Source of the DNA: an uncultured Verrucomicrobiota bacterium | Lineage (GTDB): Bacteria; Verrucomicrobiota; Kiritimatiellia; CAIQIC01; JAGNIJ01 | Assembly (NCBI GenBank): GCA_964617565.1 | Contig: CAZTYH010000006.1 | Span: forward strand, 1,748 to 41,731 | Direction: 5' to 3' | DNA length: 39,984 nucleotides | Shown: in pieces, positions 2,433 through 38,193 of the stretch | Position numbering within the stretch: position 1 is the first letter of the stretch | How the letters are laid out: each line of letters begins with the position of its first letter | Program-made: the position numbers and the translations under genes | The notes under the pieces: generated by a model | What the model saw: only the letters and a program-made list of their open reading frames with translations | What the model was told of the DNA's origin: nothing | Database searches by the model: none

Positions 2433-3761
2433 ATGTTTGACAGGATTTCCGGTTCGCTTCAGAAGATATTTCGCAACTTACGCGGCTATGGCCGGCTGTC
2501 CGAGCGCAATGTGCAGGACAGCTTGCGGGAAGTGAGACTCGCTTTGCTCGAGGCCGATGTGAATTACCAGGTGGCCCGCGATTTTATCACGCGTGTGAAG
2601 GAGAAGGCCCTCGGGAAAGACGTGCTCGAAAGCATTACCCCGGGCCAGCAGGTGGTGAAGCATGTCCACGACGAGATGGTCGAGTTGCTTGGAGGAACGC
2701 GGCGCGACTTTGACTGGGCGGCCAAGCCGTCGCTCGTGATGCTGCTGGGTTTGCATGGCGCGGGCAAGACGACGACCGCAGGCAAACTGGCCGCGCGCTG
2801 GAAAGCCGAAGGCCGGAAAGTCATGTTGGTGGCTTGCGATCTTCGCCGGCCCGCCGCAGTGGATCAGCTTCGCATATTGGCCGAGGCCGTCGGCGTGGAG
2901 GTCGTCACGCCGCAACGTGGCGAAAAATTGCGCGAGTTGGCCGGACGGGCTCAGCGGCAGGCGGTGAAAAGTAACGCCGATGTCGTGGTGTTCGATACCG
3001 GGGGCCGATTCCAGGTGGATACGGAACTGGTCCAGGAGTTGAAGGAGTTGCGCGAGCAGCTCGATCCGAAAAATATCGTGCTCGTGCTGGACGCCGCGAT
3101 CGGGCAGGAGTCCGTCAATGTCGCGCAGACGTTTCAGAAGGAAGTCGGGTTGACGGGGCTGATCCTGACCAAGCTCGACGGCGACGCAAGGGGCGGTGCG
3201 GCGCTGTCGGTTCAAGCCGTGACCCAGTGTCCGATCCTCCTGGTGGGAACCGGCGAGCGGCCGTCGGACCTCGAGCCGTTTCATCCTGAGCGCATGGCAT
3301 CGCGCATTCTCGGCATGGGCGATGTCGTGACGCTGGTCGAAAAAGCGCAACAGGCGCTCGACGAGAAGGAAATGGAGAAGATGCAGGAAGCGCTTCTCGA
3401 AGGCTCATTCGATCTGAACGATTTCCTGGATCAACTGCAGCAGGTGAAGAAGCTCGGGCCTCTCGAAAACCTGCTTGAAATGATGCCGGGGGTTGGCGCT
3501 TTGCCGCCCGGGGCAAAAGCGGGAATGGCGGGGCTTTCCGACCGTGATTTGAAGCGGACGGAGGCCATAATCCGCAGCATGACCGTGGAGGAAAGGGTGC
3601 GTCCGGGGCTCATGAATGCCAGCCGCAAACGCCGTGTAGCGGCCGGAAGCGGCACCGAAGTGAGGGAAGTTAATGATTTGCTTCGGAATTTTGAGCGGGC
3701 GAAAGATATGAGCCGCCGAATGAAGCAGATGCAAAAAAGGTTGCTTAGGCGGGCAAAGTGA
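2433..3761 (+). CDS. ffh: Signal recognition particle protein Ffh
   Basis: MFDRISGSLQ start, ALLEADV, GxxGAGKTTT, DTGGR, TKLDGDARGGAALS, Met-rich M domain with SRKRRVAAGSG. Confidence 0.97.
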   Translation: MFDRISGSLQKIFRNLRGYGRLSERNVQDSLREVRLALLEADVNYQVARDFITRVKEKALGKDVLESITPGQQVVKHVHDEMVELLGGTRRDFDWAAKPSLVMLLGLHGAGKTTTAGKLAARWKAEGRKVMLVACDLRRPAAVDQLRILAEAVGVEVVTPQRGEKLRELAGRAQRQAVKSNADVVVFDTGGRFQVDTELVQELKELREQLDPKNIVLVLDAAIGQESVNVAQTFQKEVGLTGLILTKLDGDARGGAALSVQAVTQCPILLVGTGERPSDLEPFHPERMASRILGMGDVVTLVEKAQQALDEKEMEKMQEALLEGSFDLNDFLDQLQQVKKLGPLENLLEMMPGVGALPPGAKAGMAGLSDRDLKRTEAIIRSMTVEERVRPGLMNASRKRRVAAGSGTEVREVNDLLRNFERAKDMSRRMKQMQKRLLRRAK

Positions 3762-3828: not shown

Positions 3829-4116
3829 ATGTCTGTTAAGATCAGGATGCGGAGAATGGGAAGCAATAAGCAGCCCTTTTTCCGGGTGGTGGTGACCGAT
3901 GTCCGTCGGTCCAACCGTGGAACATTTCTCGAAAACGTCGGTTGGTACGATCCGAAGAAGAAGGGCATAAATTTCAGCCTGGATACGGATCGCATTGCCT
4001 TTTGGGTTGGCCGCGGCGCCATTGTATCGGACACGGTAAAGAGCTTTCTCAGGAAGGGCGTCCGCGCGGCGAAGAAGTCGGCCGAGACGGTCAAGCCCGC
4101 ACCTGCGAGCGCGTGA
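3829..4116 (+). CDS. rpsP: 30S ribosomal protein S16
   Basis: MSVKIRMRRMGSNKQPFFRVVV...GWYDP; GGAG RBS; conserved position after ffh. Confidence 0.96.
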   Translation: MSVKIRMRRMGSNKQPFFRVVVTDVRRSNRGTFLENVGWYDPKKKGINFSLDTDRIAFWVGRGAIVSDTVKSFLRKGVRAAKKSAETVKPAPASA

Positions 4117-4132
4117 TAGCGGGGTGCGTTTC

Positions 4133-4363
4133 ATGAAGGAGCTTGTTGAATACATTGTGCGCTCGCTGGTGGATCACCCCGATGATATCCGTATTACCGA
4201 GGTGGATGGCGAACGCACTGTCGTGCTGGAACTGCGCTGCCATCCCGATGATGTGGGCAAGGTGATCGGCAAAAGCGGAAAGACCGTTGGAGCGATTCGC
4301 ACACTTCTCAGTACGGCGGCCGCGCGGCAGAACCGGCGGGCCATGCTGGAGGTTGTGGAATAG
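4133..4363 (+). CDS. khpA: KH-domain RNA-binding protein (KhpA/YlqC family)
   Basis: MKELVEYIVRSLVDHPDD...DVGKVIGKSGKT (GxxG KH loop); canonical position after rpsP. Confidence 0.92.
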   Translation: MKELVEYIVRSLVDHPDDIRITEVDGERTVVLELRCHPDDVGKVIGKSGKTVGAIRTLLSTAAARQNRRAMLEVVE

Positions 4364-4429
4364 TTCCGTTTTGCGGTGCGATCCGCGCGGTTGTCGCGAT
4401 GTCGCCCGAAGGCGGACAAGTGGTCGGTC

Positions 4430-5116
4430 ATGAGCGATCCGCTTCAAATTGATGTCGTCACCATTTTCCCCCAGATGTTGGGTGGCTTTCTGGGCGAAAG
4501 CATGTTGAAGCGTGCGGTTCGGATGGGCAAGGTGGACATCCGGACCGTTAATCTTCGTGACTATACGACCGACGTGCATCGGACGACGGATGACAGGCCT
4601 TATGGCGGCGGTCCGGGCATGGTGATGAAGCCCGAACCGATTTTTGCCGCTGTTGAAGCGGTGCGCAGCGAGGAGTCGAGAGTCATATTAATGACTCCAC
4701 AGGGTCGGAGGTTTGACCAGGCGCTGGCCCGGGATTTGAGCAGGGAAAAGCACCTGATCTTTATCTGCGGCCACTACGAAGGTGTGGATGAGCGGGTTCG
4801 GATGGCCCTGGTGGATGACGAAATCTCCATTGGAGATTACGTGCTGACAAATGGCGCGCTGCCTGCGGCGGTGGTTATTGATGCCGTAGTGAGGTTGCGG
4901 CCGGGTGTGCTGGGCGCGGAAGGCGCGGCGGAGCAGGAATCCTTTGAGGGCGGGCTCCTCGAGCATGAGCAGTACACGCGGCCGGCCGAGTTCCGCGGAA
5001 TGCGAGTACCGGATGTGCTGGTGTCGGGCGATCACGCGGAGATCGCGCGATGGCGGGCGATGCGCGCGCGCGAACGAACGCTTGAGCGAAGACCGGATTT
5101 GGAGAAGAATCAGTAG
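4430..5116 (+). CDS. trmD: tRNA (guanine37-N1)-methyltransferase
   Basis: [39 protein letters not shown]. Confidence 0.97.
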
Positions 5117-5138
5117 AAAGAAGAAACAGAGGTTGAAT

Positions 5139-5486
5139 ATGAGCGCGAAAGTCCTTGAGAAGATAGCGGGCGAACAGATCAAGAAAGAGGTTGCTTCCTT
5201 TAAAGTGGGCGATTCCGTGAAGGTCCATGTGAAGATCAAGGAAGGCGACAAGGAGCGCGTCCAGGTCTTCTCCGGAACCGTCGTCGCACGGGATGGCGGC
5301 GGTGCGACGGAAACGTTCACGGTGCGCCGTGTTTCCTATGGCGAAGGCGTCGAGCGCGTATTTCCCGTGCATGCGCCCGCTGTGACCAAGGTTGAAGTGG
5401 AGCGCCAGGGCAAGGTGCGCCGCGCCAAGCTGTACTACCTGCGGAAGCTGACCGGCAAGAAGACCAAGGTGGCCAGCCAGGACTAG
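5139..5486 (+). CDS. rplS: 50S ribosomal protein L19
   Basis: [45 protein letters not shown]. Confidence 0.97.
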
Positions 5487-6133: not shown

Positions 6134-6624
6134 TCCGCTGGCTGGGTGAAGAGGCGGTCAGGCTGAGTACGCATTTGCGCGCGCTTGCCGCGCGCATGCT
6201 TCGGGATTCATCCCGCAAACGCAAGGGGAAACTGACTTCGCGCCAGCTCACCGGGCGATGGGGAGAGCAGAAAGCCGAAAAGCTGCTTCGAGAGAAAGGA
6301 TATCGCATCCTTGGTCGTTGCGTTCGGCTCTCGCCACGTGATGAACTCGATCTGGTTGCGCGTAAAGACGGGGTGCTGGTCTTTGTGGAAGTCAAAACGC
6401 GCCGCACCGAGAATTACGGGCGGCCGGTGGAAGCGGTGAACCGGGATAAGCGCAGGGCACTGTCTCGCGCCGCGCATCGCTATCTCCGGCGCTTGCGCGC
6501 AAAGCCTCCGTATTTCCGATTCGATGTGGTGGAGGTGGTTGGGGCAGAGGGCGATCCGAAACCCATCGTCAGGCACCTCGAAAATGTTTTCACGCTCAGC
6601 CGGCAGTACAAGATTACATGGTGA
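6130..6624 (+). CDS. YraN/UPF0102 family PD-(D/E)XK nuclease-like protein
   Basis: GRWGE, ELDLVA, LVFVEVKTR, RFDVVEV; usual neighbour of rnhB. Start uncertain (GTG overlapping the rnhB stop). Confidence 0.88.
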   Translation: MIRWLGEEAVRLSTHLRALAARMLRDSSRKRKGKLTSRQLTGRWGEQKAEKLLREKGYRILGRCVRLSPRDELDLVARKDGVLVFVEVKTRRTENYGRPVEAVNRDKRRALSRAAHRYLRRLRAKPPYFRFDVVEVVGAEGDPKPIVRHLENVFTLSRQYKITW

Positions 6625-6700
6625 ACGCCACGCCTTTCCAATCGCGTTTAAGGAATGCGATCGGGTTTGCGTCCGGTGGTCTTCGCGATAAAATGCCGCA

Positions 6701-7756
6701 ATGACAACGGCGCGCAAAAGATCCGATCGTTACAAATCGAAATCCGCCAGCCGATTTTGCATCTGCCTGCTTTTCACGTTTTTATCCGGCGCGGGCGTCC
6801 CCGAGGCGCAGGATGGTGGATGGTCGTTGGGCGAATTGTATGACAGGGGAGTAGATATTCTGGAGAAGAAACTGCCTGAAGAAATCCGTGAAGAATATGA
6901 ATTCATGCGGGCAACGGATTGGCAGAATTTCTGGTCCGGCATCCAGGAGGCTCTGAATTCACAGGACCTGGAAGAATTGGATCGCGTGTTGCCGTATGTC
7001 ATCCAGGGGTTGGATGTCTTGCGCACCGTTCCGGGCGGGCAGCCTTATGCTGATTGGTTGCAGCAAAGGCTGGATTATTTTCAGGTTGCCGATGAGGCCG
7101 TAGAAGCTTTTCCCCGGCCTGTCCCGCTGCCTCCACCGCCCCCGCCGCCCGTGCAGACGAAACGGGTTGTGGTCCCGCCGCGGCCGCCGCCGCCACCGCC
7201 GCCACCGCCTGCCGTTGCAAAAAAGCGTCAGGAAGTGGTAAGCGATCGCAAAGCATGGGAAGCAAAGATGGAAAAACGGCCGGCTCCGCGAAATGCGGCC
7301 GAGGTGATCCCCGGCCTGAAGCAGGTCTTCCGCGAGGAAGGCGTGCCGGAGCAATTGGTCTGGCTGGCTGAAGTGGAGTCGTCGCTCAATCCGCAGGCGC
7401 GCAGCCCGGTCGGCGCCGTTGGCCTTTTCCAGTTCATGCCGGCCACGGCCCAGCGATTCGGGATGTCCACGAGTCCCGTGGACCAGCGGACCGATCCGCA
7501 CAAAAGCGCGCGCGCGGCCGCCCAGTATCTTCGCATCCTCCACAGGCAGTTCAATTCATGGCCGCTTGCCATCGCCGCCTACAATGCGGGCGAGGGAAGG
7601 GTGGGGCGCCTTCTCAAGCAAAGCAGCGAAAATTCATTTGAGGCGATCGAAGGCTCGCTCCCCATGGAAACCCGAATGTATGTCCCGAAAGTGCTTGCCG
7701 TGATTTCGGTTCGCGAAGGGGTGGATGGGGCGAAGCTTCCGGCTCCAAGGGCGTGA
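6701..7756 (+). CDS. Exported lytic transglycosylase (SLT/MltD-like) with polyproline linker
   Basis: Signal-like hydrophobic N-terminus. SLT motifs AEVESS, GAVGLFQFMPATA, AIAAYNAGEG, ETRMYVPK. Pro-rich linker at ~7113-7211. Confidence 0.9.
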   Translation: MTTARKRSDRYKSKSASRFCICLLFTFLSGAGVPEAQDGGWSLGELYDRGVDILEKKLPEEIREEYEFMRATDWQNFWSGIQEALNSQDLEELDRVLPYVIQGLDVLRTVPGGQPYADWLQQRLDYFQVADEAVEAFPRPVPLPPPPPPPVQTKRVVVPPRPPPPPPPPPAVAKKRQEVVSDRKAWEAKMEKRPAPRNAAEVIPGLKQVFREEGVPEQLVWLAEVESSLNPQARSPVGAVGLFQFMPATAQRFGMSTSPVDQRTDPHKSARAAAQYLRILHRQFNSWPLAIAAYNAGEGRVGRLLKQSSENSFEAIEGSLPMETRMYVPKVLAVISVREGVDGAKLPAPRA

Positions 7757-7790
7757 GGAGCGGATAAGTGTCGAACCTCCTCGTATCCGC

Positions 7791-19790: not shown

Positions 19791-19866
<76 letters not shown>

Positions 19867-27183: not shown

Positions 27184-27260
27184 GGGCCCTTAGCTCAGTT
27201 GGTCAGAGCAGGGGACTCATAATCCTCTGGTCGTAGGTTCGAGTCCTACAGGGCCCACCA
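27184..27260 (+). tRNA. tRNA with CAT anticodon, most likely tRNA-Ile2 (lysidine)
   Basis: GGGCCCTTAGCTCAGTTGGTCAGAGCAGGGGACTCATAATCCTCTGGTCGTAGGTTCGAGTCCTACAGGGCCCACCA; paired 1:72 (not fMet), ileX-like acceptor stem and GACTCATAATC anticodon arm. Confidence 0.9.
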
Positions 27261-30521: not shown

Positions 30522-30642
30522 GCTCTTTCTCCCATTTGATTCCGATAAACAACCTACGATAGAATCGAGCGAGAGCAAGGGCCTCCCTCCCGACGAAGAA
30601 GGGGACATTTCTAAAGAGTTTTGACATTGTTTATCCCGAATA

Positions 30643-30671
30643 TTGACAGCCTTTGAATGTTGAGGTATCGT
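30643..30671 (+). promoter_or_regulatory. Sigma70-type promoter of the DUF4914 operon
   Basis: TTGACA (30643-30648)-N17-TATCGT (30666-30671). Confidence 0.6.
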
Positions 30672-30723
30672 CCCGCGCTCGACTTTTAAGAGGACGAGAA
30701 ATTTCACGTTGATAATGTGAGTT

Positions 30724-30807
30724 GAAGGCGGCCCGCACGAGTGGGTGGCTTTTCGAGGCGCAGGGTCAGCAATGGTCTATCACAGACTGTGCTGGCCTTT
30801 TTTGTTT
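30724..30807 (+). promoter_or_regulatory. Structured 5' leader with intrinsic terminator (putative attenuator)
   Basis: Hairpin 1 at 30724-30753. Hairpin 2 at 30762-30799 (AGGGTCAGCA/TGCTGGCCTT with inner TGGTCT-ATCAC-AGACTG), followed by TTTTGTTT. Lies between the promoter and the first ATG at 30953. Confidence 0.65.
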
Positions 30808-30952
30808 CCCCATGACGAATCCGTTATGGAGCCGGCGATGGGAAAGCATGGCGGACCGGGAGTCCGGGATAGCCGGCTTGGAGGTTTTTATGGCAGGACG
30901 CGTTACCCCTCTTCGATTGAACGGGAGTGTTCTTCCAAACAAAGGAGTAGAC

Positions 30953-32839
30953 ATGAAGAGCAGTGAGTTTATTGCGAAATTGAACGTTCCGGACGAGGTG
31001 AGGGAGTTGTTGCGGAAGGCGAAGTCGGTGACCTGTGCGCTCAACCTCACCGATTTGGAGGACTTGGCGTGCGGAGGGAAAGCAAACTCGGAATGGATGG
31101 TGTCTTATCCTCTGCCGGATGGTCGCACGGTGGAGGAAGTAAAGGTGGTGCGCGTGCGAAATGGGATCAGTGCAAACTACATGGATCCCTACATGCGGCG
31201 GAGAGACCCGGATTGCATGGTGATTGCCGACAATATGCCATCGGACAAGCCGCGGTTCGATGAGGTCTTCGGTTTGCCCTTCAACGAGCTCCGGCAGGCG
31301 ACCTTCGACTGGCTCGTTACGCAGGATCTGGCGATCTACGCGTTCGAAATGGGGCAACCCATGATGGGTGGGGACGCGCTGGCGATCTGTCCCGCGAACG
31401 CCGGATTTTTCGCGTTCGGGCTCGCCCTCTTGCAGGGGATTGTGGATGTCAGCCAGATGAACCGCCAGATCACGCCCGAAACGATATTGTATGTGGCGCC
31501 GCCCTTCCGGCACACGCATTTCAAAGGAAAACAGATTGTCGCGCACAATCGAACGGGCGAAATCCACGAGATCTTCTCCTACAACCTGTACCCCGGGCCC
31601 AGCGCCAAGAAAGGCATTTACGGCGCGCTCATCGAAAAGGGAACGCATGAAAGCTGGGTGACCGCGCACTGCTCGGCCGTGCGAGTCGTTACTCCTTACG
31701 ACAACGTCGTGACCTTCATGCACGAAGGCGCCAGCGGCGGCGGCAAGAGCGAGATGTTGCAGCAGCCTCACCGGTTGCCGGACGGGCGGCTCCTGCTGGG
31801 GAGAAATATGGTGGGTGGCGAAGAGCGCTACCTCGAAATTCAGCGTACCTGTGAACTGCGGCCGGTCTGTGACGACATGGGCTTGTGTCACACGGAATTC
31901 CAGGAAGGCGATCAGCACCTGTATCTCATGGACGCCGAGCAAGCCTGGTTCGTGCGTGTCAATCACATCACGGGATATGGAACGGATCATGACCTCGAGC
32001 GGCTCACGATTCATTCCCCGCGATCCCTGCTGTTTCTGAATATTGACGCGATGTCCAACTCAACCGCCTTGATCTGGGAGCATATCGAGGATGCGCCGGG
32101 CACGCCGTGTCCGAATCCCCGTGTCATCATGCCGCGGAGCGTTGTTCCCGGTGTGGTGAACGACAAGGCCCAGATCAATATCCGCTCTTTTGGCGTTCGG
32201 ACACCGCCCTGCACCCGGGAACATCCGACCTACGGGATCCTGGGGGTCTTTCACATACTGCCCCCCGCCCTGGCGTGGTTGTGGCGATTGGTATCTCCGC
32301 GAGGCCACGCGAATCCCAGCATTGTGGATCAGGAGGGGATGAGCAGTGAGGGCGTTGGCAGCTACTGGCCTTTTGCAACAGGAAGGAAAGTGGATCAGGC
32401 CAACCTGTTGCTCGAGCAGTTCACGACGGCGACCAAGACCCGTTACATCCTTGTGCCCAACCAGCATGTGGGCGCGTGGGAGACAGGGTTTATGCCGCAG
32501 TGGCTTGCCAGGGACTACCTTGCCCGCCGGGGACACGCGCGGTTCCTTTCGGACCAAGTGGTGCCCTCGCGATGCCCGCTGCTGGGCTTCGCCTTGCAGA
32601 GCATGCGCATTGAGGGAACCATGATTCCCAAGTGGTTCCTTCAGGTTGACACGCAACCGGAAGTCGGAACAGAAGCCTATGACCAGGGCGCGCGGACACT
32701 GACAACTTTCTTCCACGCGCAGATCAGGGAATTCCTGCATCCCGACCTGGCGCCTCTCGGCAGGGATATCATTGAGAGCTGCCTGTCCGGCTCGTCTGTT
32801 GCCGAGTACACGCGCTTCATTCCCACTTCGGATACGTAA
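30953..32839 (+). CDS. DUF4914 family protein, PEP-carboxykinase-like
   Basis: [46 protein letters not shown] (P-loop), [21 protein letters not shown]. Confidence 0.85.
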
Positions 32840-32891
32840 GAGCCCCGGATTACGGACACAAACAACAACTCATAAAAAAAGGAGCAAGGAA

Positions 32892-33779
32892 ATGGCAGAG
32901 AAGACGCTGATGTATACGACGGAGCGGGAACGCCCGCTGTCATCCCGCGGCAAGGTTCGGGATGTGTATGATCTGGGCGACGCCTTGCTCATTGTGGCTA
33001 CCGATAGAATATCCTGCTTTGACGTCGTTCTGCCCACGCCGATTCCCGGCAAGGGCCGCGTGCTGACGCAGATGTCGAAGTTCTGGTTTGAGGCGCTGAA
33101 GGATATCATCCCTCACCATTTCATCAGCATGGATGTTTCGAAATACATGACGGACCCCGAGACGCTGGCGGAACTGGAAGGGCGCTCCATGGTTGTTCGA
33201 AAGGCCAAGCCTTTGCCGGTCGAAGCCATCGTACGCGGCTACCTGAGCGGGTCGGCCTGGAAGGAATATCTGTCCACCGGAAGCTTTCGCGGTTTGCAGT
33301 TGCCGGCCGGAATGCGCGAGTCGGATCGTCTGCCCGAACCGGCCTACACGCCCTCCACCAAGGCCGAACAGGGTCAGCACGACGAGAACATCACCTTCGA
33401 AGAAACGATTCCCCTGCTGGGTGAAGAGACCGCCCGGAAGATCAGGGGCGCAAGCTTGCGGTTGTACACAACGGCCGCGGAGCTGGCACTCAAGAAAGGC
33501 ATTATCATTGCGGACACCAAGTTCGAGTTCGGCGTGGCCGATGGAGAGGTGATCCTGATTGATGAAGTGCTGACGCCTGATTCATCCCGCTTCTGGCCGG
33601 TGGAGGGCTATGAACCCGGCAAAGCGCAGCCCAGCTTCGACAAGCAGTACGTGCGGGATTGGCTTGAAAGTATCGGCTGGAACAAGAGTCCGCCGGCGCC
33701 GGAACTGCCTTCCGATGTTGTCGCCCGTACCTCGCAGAAGTACCAGGAAGCCCTGAAAAGTCTCACCGGCATGCCGTAG
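32892..33779 (+). CDS. purC: Phosphoribosylaminoimidazole-succinocarboxamide (SAICAR) synthase
   Basis: [66 protein letters not shown]. Confidence 0.96.
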
Positions 33780-35390: not shown

Positions 35391-36599
35391 ATGAAGCGCG
35401 CATTTGTTCTGCCGGCCGCCGTCCTGATCCAGATGTGCCTGGGTGGCGTATATGCATGGAGTGCGTTTGTGCCTGCCTTAAAGGGCGAATTGGGTTTCAC
35501 TACCGCACAGACACAGCTTGTGTTCGGTCTCACCATCGCATCGTTTACCATCGCCATGGTATTTGCCGGGCGTCTTCTGATTCGATGGGGGCCGCGCTGG
35601 GTCGGCTTGCTGGGTGGCCTTTTGTTTGCCGCCGGATACACGGTGGCGGCCCGGGCAAACGGGGGATATCCGGCGCTGCTCTGCGGTGTCGGTCTGGTGG
35701 CCGGCGCAAGCATCGGCTTTGGTTACGTTGCGGCGCTGACGACCGGCGTACAATGGTTCCCCCGTCATAAGGGGTTGGTTACCGGCGTGGCGGTCGCCGG
35801 CTTTGGAGCAGGCGCCATCCTCCTCTCTTCCGCCGTGGCCAGTTTCCTGCGGGACGGGGGTTCGGTGCTGAATGTATTCCGCGCAATTGGATGGGCCGGC
35901 GGGGCCGTCGTCAGCGCCGCATCCCTGCTCCTGTTCCGGCCGCCTCGGACAGAGGCCGGCGCTTCGTCCGGTGCTTCGCCGCGAAGTCTGCGTAGCGACC
36001 CTTTCTTTCGGTCCCTGGTTGTCGGCATGTTCTGCGGGACGTTCGCCGGACTGCTGGTCGTGGGCAATCTGAAGCCCATCGGCCTGGATGGAGGACTGCC
36101 TGCCCATGTCGCGATCGTGGCCATCAGCTTCTTTGCTGTCGGTAATACCCTGGGCCGTATCGTATGGGGTTGGATAGCGGATCGCATCGGTTACAGAGCC
36201 ATTCCGCTGTCTCTCCTCCTGCTCGGTGTTGCGCTGGGTTTGTTGCTGGTTGCGCGGGGTTCAGGCTGGGGCTTCTCCGCGGCCGCGCTGCTAGCCGGGC
36301 TCGGTTTTGGAGCCTGCTTTGTGCTTTATGCCGCGCAGGTCGCCACGCATTTCGGCGCCGCTGCTGTAGCGAGCATATACCCGCTGGTATTCCTGGCGTA
36401 TGGACTGGCCGGAACCACCGGTCCGTGGGTCGGCGGACATCTCTTCGATCTGACATCGAGCTATGCCCCGCCTATTTTCGTCGCTATCGGTGTTTTGGGG
36501 ATCGGCGCCTGGTACACATGGGCAACGTATCGCGCCACGGTGGCAATCCTATTGATTGACGCCCCATGTCTTGGAGGAATAGACTGCGCGGGCAAATGA
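35391..36599 (+). CDS. MFS transporter, oxalate/formate antiporter (OFA)-like
   Basis: About 12 hydrophobic segments; CLGGVYAWSAF, WFPRHKGLVTGVAVAGFGAG, GRIVWGWIADRIG. Confidence 0.88.
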   Translation: MKRAFVLPAAVLIQMCLGGVYAWSAFVPALKGELGFTTAQTQLVFGLTIASFTIAMVFAGRLLIRWGPRWVGLLGGLLFAAGYTVAARANGGYPALLCGVGLVAGASIGFGYVAALTTGVQWFPRHKGLVTGVAVAGFGAGAILLSSAVASFLRDGGSVLNVFRAIGWAGGAVVSAASLLLFRPPRTEAGASSGASPRSLRSDPFFRSLVVGMFCGTFAGLLVVGNLKPIGLDGGLPAHVAIVAISFFAVGNTLGRIVWGWIADRIGYRAIPLSLLLLGVALGLLLVARGSGWGFSAAALLAGLGFGACFVLYAAQVATHFGAAAVASIYPLVFLAYGLAGTTGPWVGGHLFDLTSSYAPPIFVAIGVLGIGAWYTWATYRATVAILLIDAPCLGGIDCAGK

Positions 36600-37003
36600 A
36601 AAACCCGCCAAAAAAACAGAGCCAGCAGCCCGGCTTGAAAACCAGGGGCGAAATCGAAGCGGAGTTGAGCGAGGCCATCATCAAGTTTGAACGCGAGTAC
36701 ATGGGCCGGGGTCCTGAAGAAACCCGCACGTATATTATAGACGATCTGATTATTGTCCGGCTGCGCGGCGTGCTCACGCCGGCGGAGAAGCAACTGGTAA
36801 AAAGCGAAAGCGGCGGCCAGGGTCGCGCGCTCATCAAACAGGTGCGGATGGAATTGCTGGAGAAAGCGCGGCCGCTGCTCGATGTTCTTGTCCACAACAT
36901 CACCGGTCAAAAAGTGCGAAGTCTCCACACGGATATCAGCACGACCACCGGCGAACGAATCATCATCTTCTCGCTTCTGGGTAGTCCCCGATTCCAACCC
37001 TGA
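36596..37003 (+). CDS. DUF2294 / MpsC-family protein
   Basis: ATG overlaps the MFS stop (ATGA). KTRGEIEAELS...FEREYMGRGP, RLRGVLTPAEKQL, ITGQKVRSLHTDISTTTGERIIIF. Confidence 0.88.
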   Translation: MKNPPKKQSQQPGLKTRGEIEAELSEAIIKFEREYMGRGPEETRTYIIDDLIIVRLRGVLTPAEKQLVKSESGGQGRALIKQVRMELLEKARPLLDVLVHNITGQKVRSLHTDISTTTGERIIIFSLLGSPRFQP

Positions 37004-38116: not shown

Positions 38117-38193
38117 TGGTCGGGGCGGTGGGATTTGAACCCACGACATCCAGCTCCCAAAGCTGGCGCTCTACCAGGCTGAGCCACGCCCCG
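38117..38193 (-). tRNA. tRNA-Pro (TGG)
   Basis: Reverse complement CGGGGCGTGGCTCAGCCTGGTAGAGCGCCAGCTTTGGGAGCTGGATGTCGTGGGTTCAAATCCCACCGCCCCGACCA; 77 nt. Confidence 0.97.

Follow-up and report, generated by a model that had tools for sequence, protein, structure and literature searches.

In ribonucleic antiterminator (RAT) systems, an imperfect hairpin with internal loops lies before a terminator or overlaps it; the hairpin is too weak on its own and is stabilised by a protein (BglG, LicT, SacY or GlcT). HutP, which acts on the hut operon of Bacillus subtilis, binds spaced NAG triplets in a manner that depends on histidine and a divalent ion, and the targets of ANTAR proteins are two small hairpins with conserved hexaloops. 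Here we describe a leader RNA of about 95 bases with a built-in intrinsic terminator that bears some likeness to each of these. It lies in a 39,984-nucleotide (nt) stretch of DNA (the window) from an uncultured Verrucomicrobiota bacterium of the class Kiritimatiellia (contig CAZTYH010000006.1), ahead of an operon that runs from a DUF4914 gene to a gene for the small protein MpsC/DUF2294. This element represents a new sequence type among leader RNAs, narrow in distribution and absent from Rfam, whose conservation and covariation exceed chance. The reading we favour, at slightly better than even odds, is a transcription attenuator that keeps the operon off by default and depends on a factor for its opening; MpsC heads the candidates for this operator but is unproven. 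If correct, it would add an uncatalogued family of cis-regulatory RNA and point to a function for DUF2294/MpsC, a widespread family without a known one.

A conserved leader of two abutting hairpins

The element occupies part of an intergenic gap of about 430 nt, bounded by a dienelactone-hydrolase gene that starts near 30522 and diverges on the minus strand, and by the DUF4914 ATG at 30953. Its parts are listed here in window coordinates; those of P1 were assigned by alignment and folding, and the terminator by fold, covariation and U-tract.

30643 to 30671, plus strand: sigma-70-like promoter, with TTGACA at 30643-30648, a 17-nt spacer and TATCGT at 30666-30671
30708 to 30713, plus strand: 5' flank GUUGAU, able to pair with GUCAGC at 30765-30770 to form helix P0, the candidate antiterminator
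30716 to 30762, plus strand: hairpin P1, made up of P1a, a 2x2 internal loop, P1b and P1c
30716 to 30719 (UGUG) with 30759 to 30762 (CGCA), plus strand: P1a
30720 to 30721 (AG) opposite 30757 to 30758 (GG), plus strand: the conserved 2x2 internal loop of P1
30722 to 30729 with 30748 to 30756, plus strand: P1b, with U30750 bulged
30731 to 30736 with 30741 to 30746, plus strand: P1c, with its loop at 30737-30740
30763 to 30807, plus strand: intrinsic terminator P2 and its U-tract
30763 to 30798, plus strand: the P2 hairpin, 9 + 6 pairs with A30772 bulged and a loop at 30779-30783
30808 to 30952, plus strand: spacer between terminator and start codon, unconserved in relatives

Several parts of this layout had been recognised in a first-pass annotation made from the letters of the window. 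Its TTGACA-N17-TATCGT promoter upstream of the hairpins is present, matches 10 of 12 consensus positions and ranks first of the five promoter-like sites between 29500 and 38200 (shuffled sequences gave 2.6 +/- 1.3). Transcription is predicted to start near 30678-30680, which would make the terminated transcript about 125 nt long. Inspection by eye placed comparable TTGACA-type boxes 20-45 nt upstream of the conserved core in the related genomes G013, G203, G350 and G318 (G numbers denote genomes, G000 being the one that holds the window, and L numbers denote fetched loci). In G014 transcription apparently begins, again by eye, right at P1.

The first hairpin, annotated at 30724-30753, folds as described (30724-30754), and the long second hairpin with its U-tract is an intrinsic terminator. 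Taken alone, P2 has 15 pairs and a folding energy of -19.4 kcal/mol, and it runs into U6-G-U3 at 30799-30807; all 14 copies of the element share this build, a G+C-rich stem (15-16 pairs) with a U-tract behind it. The first ATG had been placed about 145 nt further on and is indeed that of DUF4914, some 150 nt downstream of the terminator. What had been taken for an unpaired linker, GAGGCGC, is instead part of P1: its CGCA strand pairs with UGUG to close P1a and its GG faces AG across the internal loop, so that P1 abuts the terminator with zero spacer. Two minor hairpins were also noted. One, at 30703-30720 in a 281-nt fold, is small and local; it uses the UGUG of P1a and competes with P0 and with P1a, the latter supported by covariation. 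The other, at 30863-30892, is weak and terminator-like and lies inside the unconserved spacer before the DUF4914 ATG.

The fold is carried by the alignment of all 14 distinct copies (A5), which was fitted to a covariance model that favours pairing; a first, model-free analysis of four sequences with MAFFT and RNAalifold gave the same fold. Standard pairs fill 91.5% of the cells of A5, against 32-48% once the 3' partners are slid by one to three columns, and the covariation score was reached by none of 500 shuffles. Changes on both sides are seen in 15 of the 33 pairs, so the conservation and covariation that would be expected of homologous leaders are both there. Helix 1 contributes both-sided changes in 10 of its 18 pairs (89.1% of cells pair) and the upper stem of P2 five covarying pairs; the lower stem of P2 is near-invariant in sequence on both arms. 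In A5, G-U pairs are conserved on the plus strand only, and this one-strand conservation is counted among the evidence that the RNA is real.

Conservation of sequence is concentrated at the foot of P1 (5' strand G-N-G-A-G-U, 3' strand G-C-N-C), in the internal loop, along both arms of the lower terminator stem and in the U-tract. All 14 copies keep G30717, G30719, G30721 and U30722, together with the U30766-G30795 wobble in the lower terminator stem. All conserved bases thus lie within helices and one 2x2 loop, and there is no conserved single-stranded seed. The apex of P1 varies, and G350, G318 and G268 carry inserts there that reach about 30 nt; the P1 loop measures about 3 to 5 nt and the terminator loop 3-8 nt, and no loop base is conserved in either hairpin. 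The CAC that the annotation pointed out in both loops of the window is conserved in none of the other copies and hence due to chance. A hand-written structural descriptor of the conserved core picked out this element alone from the 2.86-Mb genome and gave nothing in the reversed control.

Rfam 15 holds no family that the leader would belong to. At the gathering score, the whole window matched no family besides three tRNAs, in keeping with the earlier description of the leader as unnamed, and a search of 30550-31000 at E<=10 returned as its sole match a partial Guanidine-III of 12.2 bits (gathering score 36) that lies within coding sequence. A leader peptide was considered and rejected, as candidate frames have just 1-3 codons and are, by eye, unconserved.

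Copies of the leader and their distribution

When G000 and 40 relatives were searched at the DNA level, three genomes besides G000 gave matches, 77-83% identical and limited to window positions 30707-30810. Flanks and downstream genes differ in those three; across the intergenic region, conservation in relatives is restricted to the 104-nt block 30708-30811. Covariance model R1 retrieved G000, G010, G013 and G014 at 105-113 bits, and no further member, from 55 genomes of the order, and the new full members G167 and G127 from 151 genomes of the class. A terminator-arm pattern was then run on 401 genomes of the class and matched 13 (reversed control 0); five of its nine new loci are full members (G203, G314, G350, G318, G393) and four are plain terminators without P1 (G153, G325, G282 and G267, all of one genus, g69). 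A second model, R2, added G295 and G268 from 41 further MpsC-bearing genomes. The pattern scan of metagenomes gave 122 stretches, 80 of which were scanned with the model; one true member, L237, was found, and the other 10 matches listed among those 80 reach at most 31 bits and look like plain terminators. A weak match in G015 (29 bits) is a convergent terminator and was left out of the count.

The total is 14 distinct sequences, from 13 genomes in nine families of one class and from one metagenome contig. The first-pass annotation had proposed looking for the motif upstream of DUF4914-linked operons, but the view that it is general to their leaders found no support: model R1 gave no convincing match in 80 DUF4914 loci from other phyla, the best off-target score being 23 bits at a site that is not upstream of the gene. 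In G167 (L090, contig C57) and G127 (L091, contig C72) the leader sits about 205-215 nt from the contig start, which may be coincidence or may reflect an upstream repeat that breaks assemblies.

One gene set lies behind the leader

All 14 copies lie upstream of, and on the same strand as, one recurring gene set: GTP-type phosphoenolpyruvate (PEP) carboxykinase (PEPCK) or DUF4914, PurC, aspartate aminotransferase (AspAT), citrate synthase, a haloacid dehalogenase-type (HAD) phosphatase that is often fused to Sua5, PurE, a major facilitator superfamily (MFS) transporter of oxalate/formate type, and MpsC/DUF2294. The gene that follows the leader directly is PEPCK in G010, G314, G350, G318, G268 and L237, DUF4914 in the window and in G203 (the latter with fragments 82-90% identical to the protein of the window), PurC in G014 and G295, AspAT in G127 and G393, and the HAD phosphatase in G013; in G167 nothing but fragments of PEPCK and AspAT stands between the leader and the HAD gene. 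In the window the operon reads as follows.

30953 to 32839, plus strand: DUF4914 protein of 628 amino acids, first gene of the operon (PF16260, E 1e-296)
32772 to 33779, plus strand: paralogue of PurC (SAICAR synthetase), by profile match; second copy on contig C46
33797 to 34795, plus strand: paralogue of Sua5/TsaC-type threonylcarbamoyl-AMP synthase, by profile match; two further copies in the genome
34786 to 35337, plus strand: paralogue of PurE (AIR carboxylase family), by profile match; further copies in the genome
35334 to 36599, plus strand: MFS transporter of oxalate/formate or lactate type, by profile match
36566 to 37003, plus strand: MpsC/DUF2294 protein, last gene of the operon and candidate trans-acting operator (PF10057, E 9e-39)

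The position of the leader bears directly on how it works. In 9 of the 14 copies only about 20-70 nt separate the element from the start codon. This leaves little room for a second promoter, and therefore the terminator would have to be read through for the genes to be expressed; for the same reason, the earlier suggestion that the operon is off by default is a reasonable one. The need for read-through in turn favours a cis-acting attenuator over an independent, trans-acting small RNA gene whose place before the operon would be incidental or would allow leaky read-through only. Such a gene would account for the discrete RNA of about 125 nt that the promoter and strong terminator should yield, and in the window the next gene is about 150 nt away. 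All 14 copies are, however, co-oriented with and directly before the same genes, nine of them at the short distances just given, and the conserved nucleotides lie in helices and not in a single-stranded seed. We consider a small RNA gene very improbable, and treat the element as a probable cis-acting attenuation leader, as its fixed position before one gene set suggests.

The genes under the leader are spare paralogues, because further copies exist elsewhere in G000. The PurC, PurE and Sua5 proteins of the operon all pass the NCBI equivalog cut-offs. A second PurC is encoded on contig C46 (10606-11355), a second PurE and a Sua5/YrdC-type gene lie close together on contig C40 (13063-15357), and a GTP-type PEPCK is found on contig C2 (59538-60614). 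No terminator-type leader was seen by eye in the 470 nt upstream of this last gene. The enzymes concerned use CO2/bicarbonate or oxaloacetate/aspartate and are encoded here by second gene copies, and the element probably governs them as a coherent, CO2-, oxaloacetate- and aspartate-linked set. If so, anaerobes of the Verrucomicrobiota type may have a response dedicated to carbon-supply stress.

The DUF4914 protein appears to belong to the same set. Its AlphaFold2 model (pLDDT 91) matches PEPCK structures over the whole length (Foldseek E 1e-22, TM 0.6-0.76), the protein carries a [10 protein letters not shown]-loop, and its gene fills the operon slot that GTP-type PEPCK holds in six other copies of the leader. 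Judging from the model, DUF4914 is probably a divergent PEPCK-type enzyme with the PEP carboxykinase fold, and the family, on which no literature was found, would gain a reading as an enzyme of this fold in the PEPCK slot. The DUF4914-HAD-Sua5 trio recurs in loci of Syntrophales and Spirochaetes. Fusions of the HAD phosphatase and Sua5 in one frame were seen in L100 (G010, about 6250-7764) and L102 (G014, 3925-5450); elsewhere the two are separate or absent. Decayed pieces lie directly behind the leader in L098 (G167, 350-927; PEPCK and AspAT), and L117 (G203, 2729-3690) holds four DUF4914 pieces and a truncated PurC. These fragments in G167 and G203 are either real gene decay or artefacts of draft assembly.

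Termination as the predicted default

On the reading we favour, transcription would start at the promoter at 30643-30671 and the nascent RNA would fold into the rod-like hairpin P1. About 45 nt later, the strong intrinsic terminator would form, stacked directly on P1. Unaided, the terminator should win (about -19 against about -6 kcal/mol for the P0 extension), most transcripts would end near 30803-30807 and the operon would stay off. Expression would then need a trans-acting factor that recognises P1a, the AG/GG loop and the terminator base with its U-G wobble. Such a factor might hold the 5' arm of the terminator in an extended P0-P1 rod, or it might make RNA polymerase read through.

The candidate for the rod is helix P0, which was examined in nascent RNAs folded with 22 nt of 5' flank. 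In the window, P0 is part of the minimum-energy fold of the nascent RNA (-5.8 kcal/mol). It lengthens the P1 rod at its base, beyond another purine 2x2 loop, and engages the terminator's 5' arm; an equally good helix arose in 8 of 100 shuffles of the flank. The same helix forms in G013 (0 of 100 shuffles as good) and in G203 (9 of 100), and helices in other registers are found in G314, G127, G393 and G268. As the terminator is far more stable than P0, termination should be the default, with an outside factor needed for expression. An RAT-like antiterminator is plausible for the window; for the family as a whole it is not established. We also looked by hand for pairing of the CGCA strand with the 3' arm of the terminator, which is possible in the window and unconserved in G203, G314, G127, G393 and L237, and rejected it.

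No conserved pairing was found that is mutually exclusive between P1 and the terminator: in truncated alignments, with the 3' arm removed, the consensus fold leaves the 5' arm unpaired. This favours an outside factor over a self-contained switch, and it bears on the possibility that the element is a riboswitch for a metabolite or ion, with an aptamer lying partly in the terminator, a ligand bound at the junction of P1a, the internal loop and P2, and MpsC merely one of the regulated genes. There is something to be said for a riboswitch. Its conserved nucleotides cluster at just this junction and in the lower terminator stem, the invariant U-G wobble included; the motif is compact, structured and covarying, as a sensor domain would be; the gene set, with its enzymes of CO2, oxaloacetate and aspartate, is metabolically coherent; and aptamers embedded in a terminator exist, as in the HMP-PP (thiS) class. 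Apart from the lack of a conserved alternative pairing, with P0 beating shuffles in just 3 of the 14 copies, only 13 of the searched genomes, all of one class, carry the sequence type, and the same regulon elsewhere has other leaders, unlike what is seen for most aptamers; nor does Rfam hold a match. We therefore regard a riboswitch as unlikely, and return to the factor-dependent attenuator and the protein that might operate it.

Linkage of the leader to MpsC/DUF2294

The most likely factor would be MpsC/DUF2294, a small protein that is encoded together with these leaders and that forms the C-terminal domain of some response regulators. The first-pass annotation had already named the DUF2294 protein as a candidate antiterminator and had noted that the leader stands before an operon carrying its gene. 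The latter holds for the family: the two share an operon in 9 of 14 copies, so that a hairpin with an intrinsic terminator is genetically linked to an MpsC/DUF2294 gene. Co-occurrence at the level of genomes points the same way. Pfam family MpsC (PF10057) is present in 51 of the 401 sampled genomes of the class, and within the order the RNA and MpsC are found in the same four of 55 genomes (G000, G010, G013, G014). Within the class sample, MpsC is present in 12 of the 13 RNA-bearing genomes and in 39 of the other 388 (Fisher p = 6e-11, uncorrected for phylogeny); the one RNA-bearing genome without MpsC is G203, where the operon is cut by a contig end.

Loci of MpsC show that leaders of this kind extend beyond the one sequence type. 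We fetched 20 such loci from MpsC-bearing genomes in which the RNA had not yet been seen. Two of them hold class-A copies, those of G295 and G268 counted above, and 14 have, in the equivalent place, a promoter and a hairpin-plus-terminator leader of another sequence type, which brings loci with a terminator-bearing leader to 16 of 20. The order in many of the 14 is mpsC, then at once such a leader, then DUF4914, PEPCK, AspAT or PurE. At least three further sequence types (B-D) can be told apart, with yet another in Syntrophales loci, and most of them share a purine 2x2 loop (5' AG, 3' GG or AG) near the hairpin base, as judged by eye from RNAalifold runs on small sets. Two of these types occur in public assemblies of Pontiellaceae and Victivallales. 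Rfam gave no match in ten related loci with other leader types. Type B was seen in L164, L167, L171, L172 and L062, type C in L156-L160 and L165, type D in L163, L168, L059 and L063, and further leaders in L061, L064 and L074; these lie behind mpsC, in front of DUF4914, PEPCK, AspAT, PurE or HAD, or both.

The protein itself is predicted with confidence (AlphaFold pLDDT 92.7) to have the element order alpha-beta-beta-alpha-alpha-beta-beta, and has 5668 relatives at E<=1e-5. Rare fusions exist, three REC-MpsC and one PP2C-MpsC (P0178, P0181, P0272, P0273), with MpsC C-terminal in all four. In response regulators the C-terminal domain holds the output position; the REC fusions would thus fit MpsC as a regulatory effector, leaving its target undefined.

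A number of observations weigh against MpsC as operator and against antitermination through P0. The helix is weak or absent in 7 of the 14 copies, and the upstream flank complements the terminator arm no better than shuffled sequence does (fraction as good 0.12-0.94). The genomes behind the co-occurrence counts are not phylogenetically independent, and the Fisher p overstates the link. In 5 of the 14 copies MpsC was not seen in the same operon, in two because the contig or fetched locus ends first and in three because the gene is on another contig, and 39 of the 41 other MpsC-bearing genomes are without this sequence type of leader. The MpsC model resembles no known RNA- or DNA-binding fold (best Foldseek E 0.03; best VIA Z 6.6, which is within noise); no PDB relative was found by sequence and no usable match in the Atlas. 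With a pI of 10.1 the MpsC of the window is basic, yet across the family the median is 7.8. Finally, deletion of mpsC in Staphylococcus aureus gave no growth phenotype; the gene lies there downstream of the MpsAB bicarbonate-transporter genes and is dispensable for transport (PMC6689103). The S. aureus phenotype neither supports nor excludes a regulatory role.

Some of these points would suit a factor-dependent attenuator whose factor is not MpsC and could be a general factor of elongation or termination or else an RNA-binding protein whose gene lies elsewhere, with MpsC acting as a small-molecule sensor, an enzyme partner or a DNA-binding regulator of the regulon. The unmatched fold and the copies with MpsC outside the operon both agree with this, and the PP2C-MpsC fusion fits a role as sensor or in a partner switch no less than an output role. 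On the other hand, the co-occurrence of RNA and MpsC in genomes is tight, mpsC adjoins leaders of several sequence types, and Pfam finds no candidate regulator besides MpsC among the seven proteins of the operon. A different factor thus seems to us distinctly unlikely, and MpsC stays the first candidate.

As for what the attenuator might respond to, the gene set makes CO2/bicarbonate or C4-acid status a possible signal. The RNA, its fold and conservation, its fixed place before one gene set and its co-occurrence with MpsC are shown; that it terminates by default and is relieved by antitermination, which factor acts on it and what signal it follows are matters that we infer. A search for expression data turned up two runs only, each with 0.04 of the sampled words. 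A bolder version of the same idea, which we hold to be rather improbable but worth stating, would make MpsC the founding member of a new family of RNA-binding antiterminators, used also as an output domain of some response regulators, that senses inorganic-carbon or C4-acid status, opens leaders of this kind and so switches on a 'carboxylation regulon' of spare PEPCK-type, PurE, PurC, Sua5, aspartate aminotransferase and citrate synthase genes. Were it true, this would be the first RNA-level circuit responding to CO2/bicarbonate to be described in heterotrophic bacteria. The literature search, which covered neither subscription-only papers nor supplementary files, returned nothing on this RNA or on a regulatory role for DUF2294, and among the matches listed for COG5609, PF10057 and ybcI none was relevant by title or the start of the abstract.

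Comparison with described leader systems

One likeness is to the RAT-terminators of BglG and LicT, whose layout is matched by the predicted P0-P1 rod in G000, G013 and G203. The overlap helix P0 is, however, unconserved in half of the copies, the conserved core here reaches both arms of the terminator and the RNA sequence is unrelated; Pfam, applied to the proteins of the operon only and not to the rest of the genome, showed no protein with CAT and PRD domains. The parallel with HutP is one of logic, in that a small protein encoded by the operon would act on a leader terminator to permit read-through. It differs in that no regular NAG triplets, of the kind bound by HutP or TRAP, were seen by eye in A5, and the MpsC model has no significant structural match.

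The analogy with ANTAR twin hairpins drawn in the first-pass annotation rests on two hairpins of which the second is a terminator, and REC-X architectures are indeed known for both ANTAR and MpsC. It does not carry over to the RNA, since in this leader neither the length nor the sequence of the loops is constant and the apex of P1 takes the long insertions described above, and no ANTAR domain was found by Pfam among the seven operon proteins. The HMP-PP (thiS) motif is likewise very small, with conserved nucleotides inside a terminator stem next to a short hairpin; the present element differs from it in that no Rfam match and no alternative pairing were found, and in its narrow phylogenetic range and the other leader types that replace it. 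With LoaP, a NusG paralogue, the system shares a conserved hairpin in the 5' leader before an intrinsic terminator, a protein-binding one in the case of LoaP, and factor-dependent read-through, which here would be the proposed mode of action. The operon has no NusG-like gene, and the RNAs are unrelated.

Other features of the window

The three tRNA genes matched by Rfam lie at 19794-19866 (minus strand), 27184-27257 (plus strand) and 38120-38193 (minus strand).

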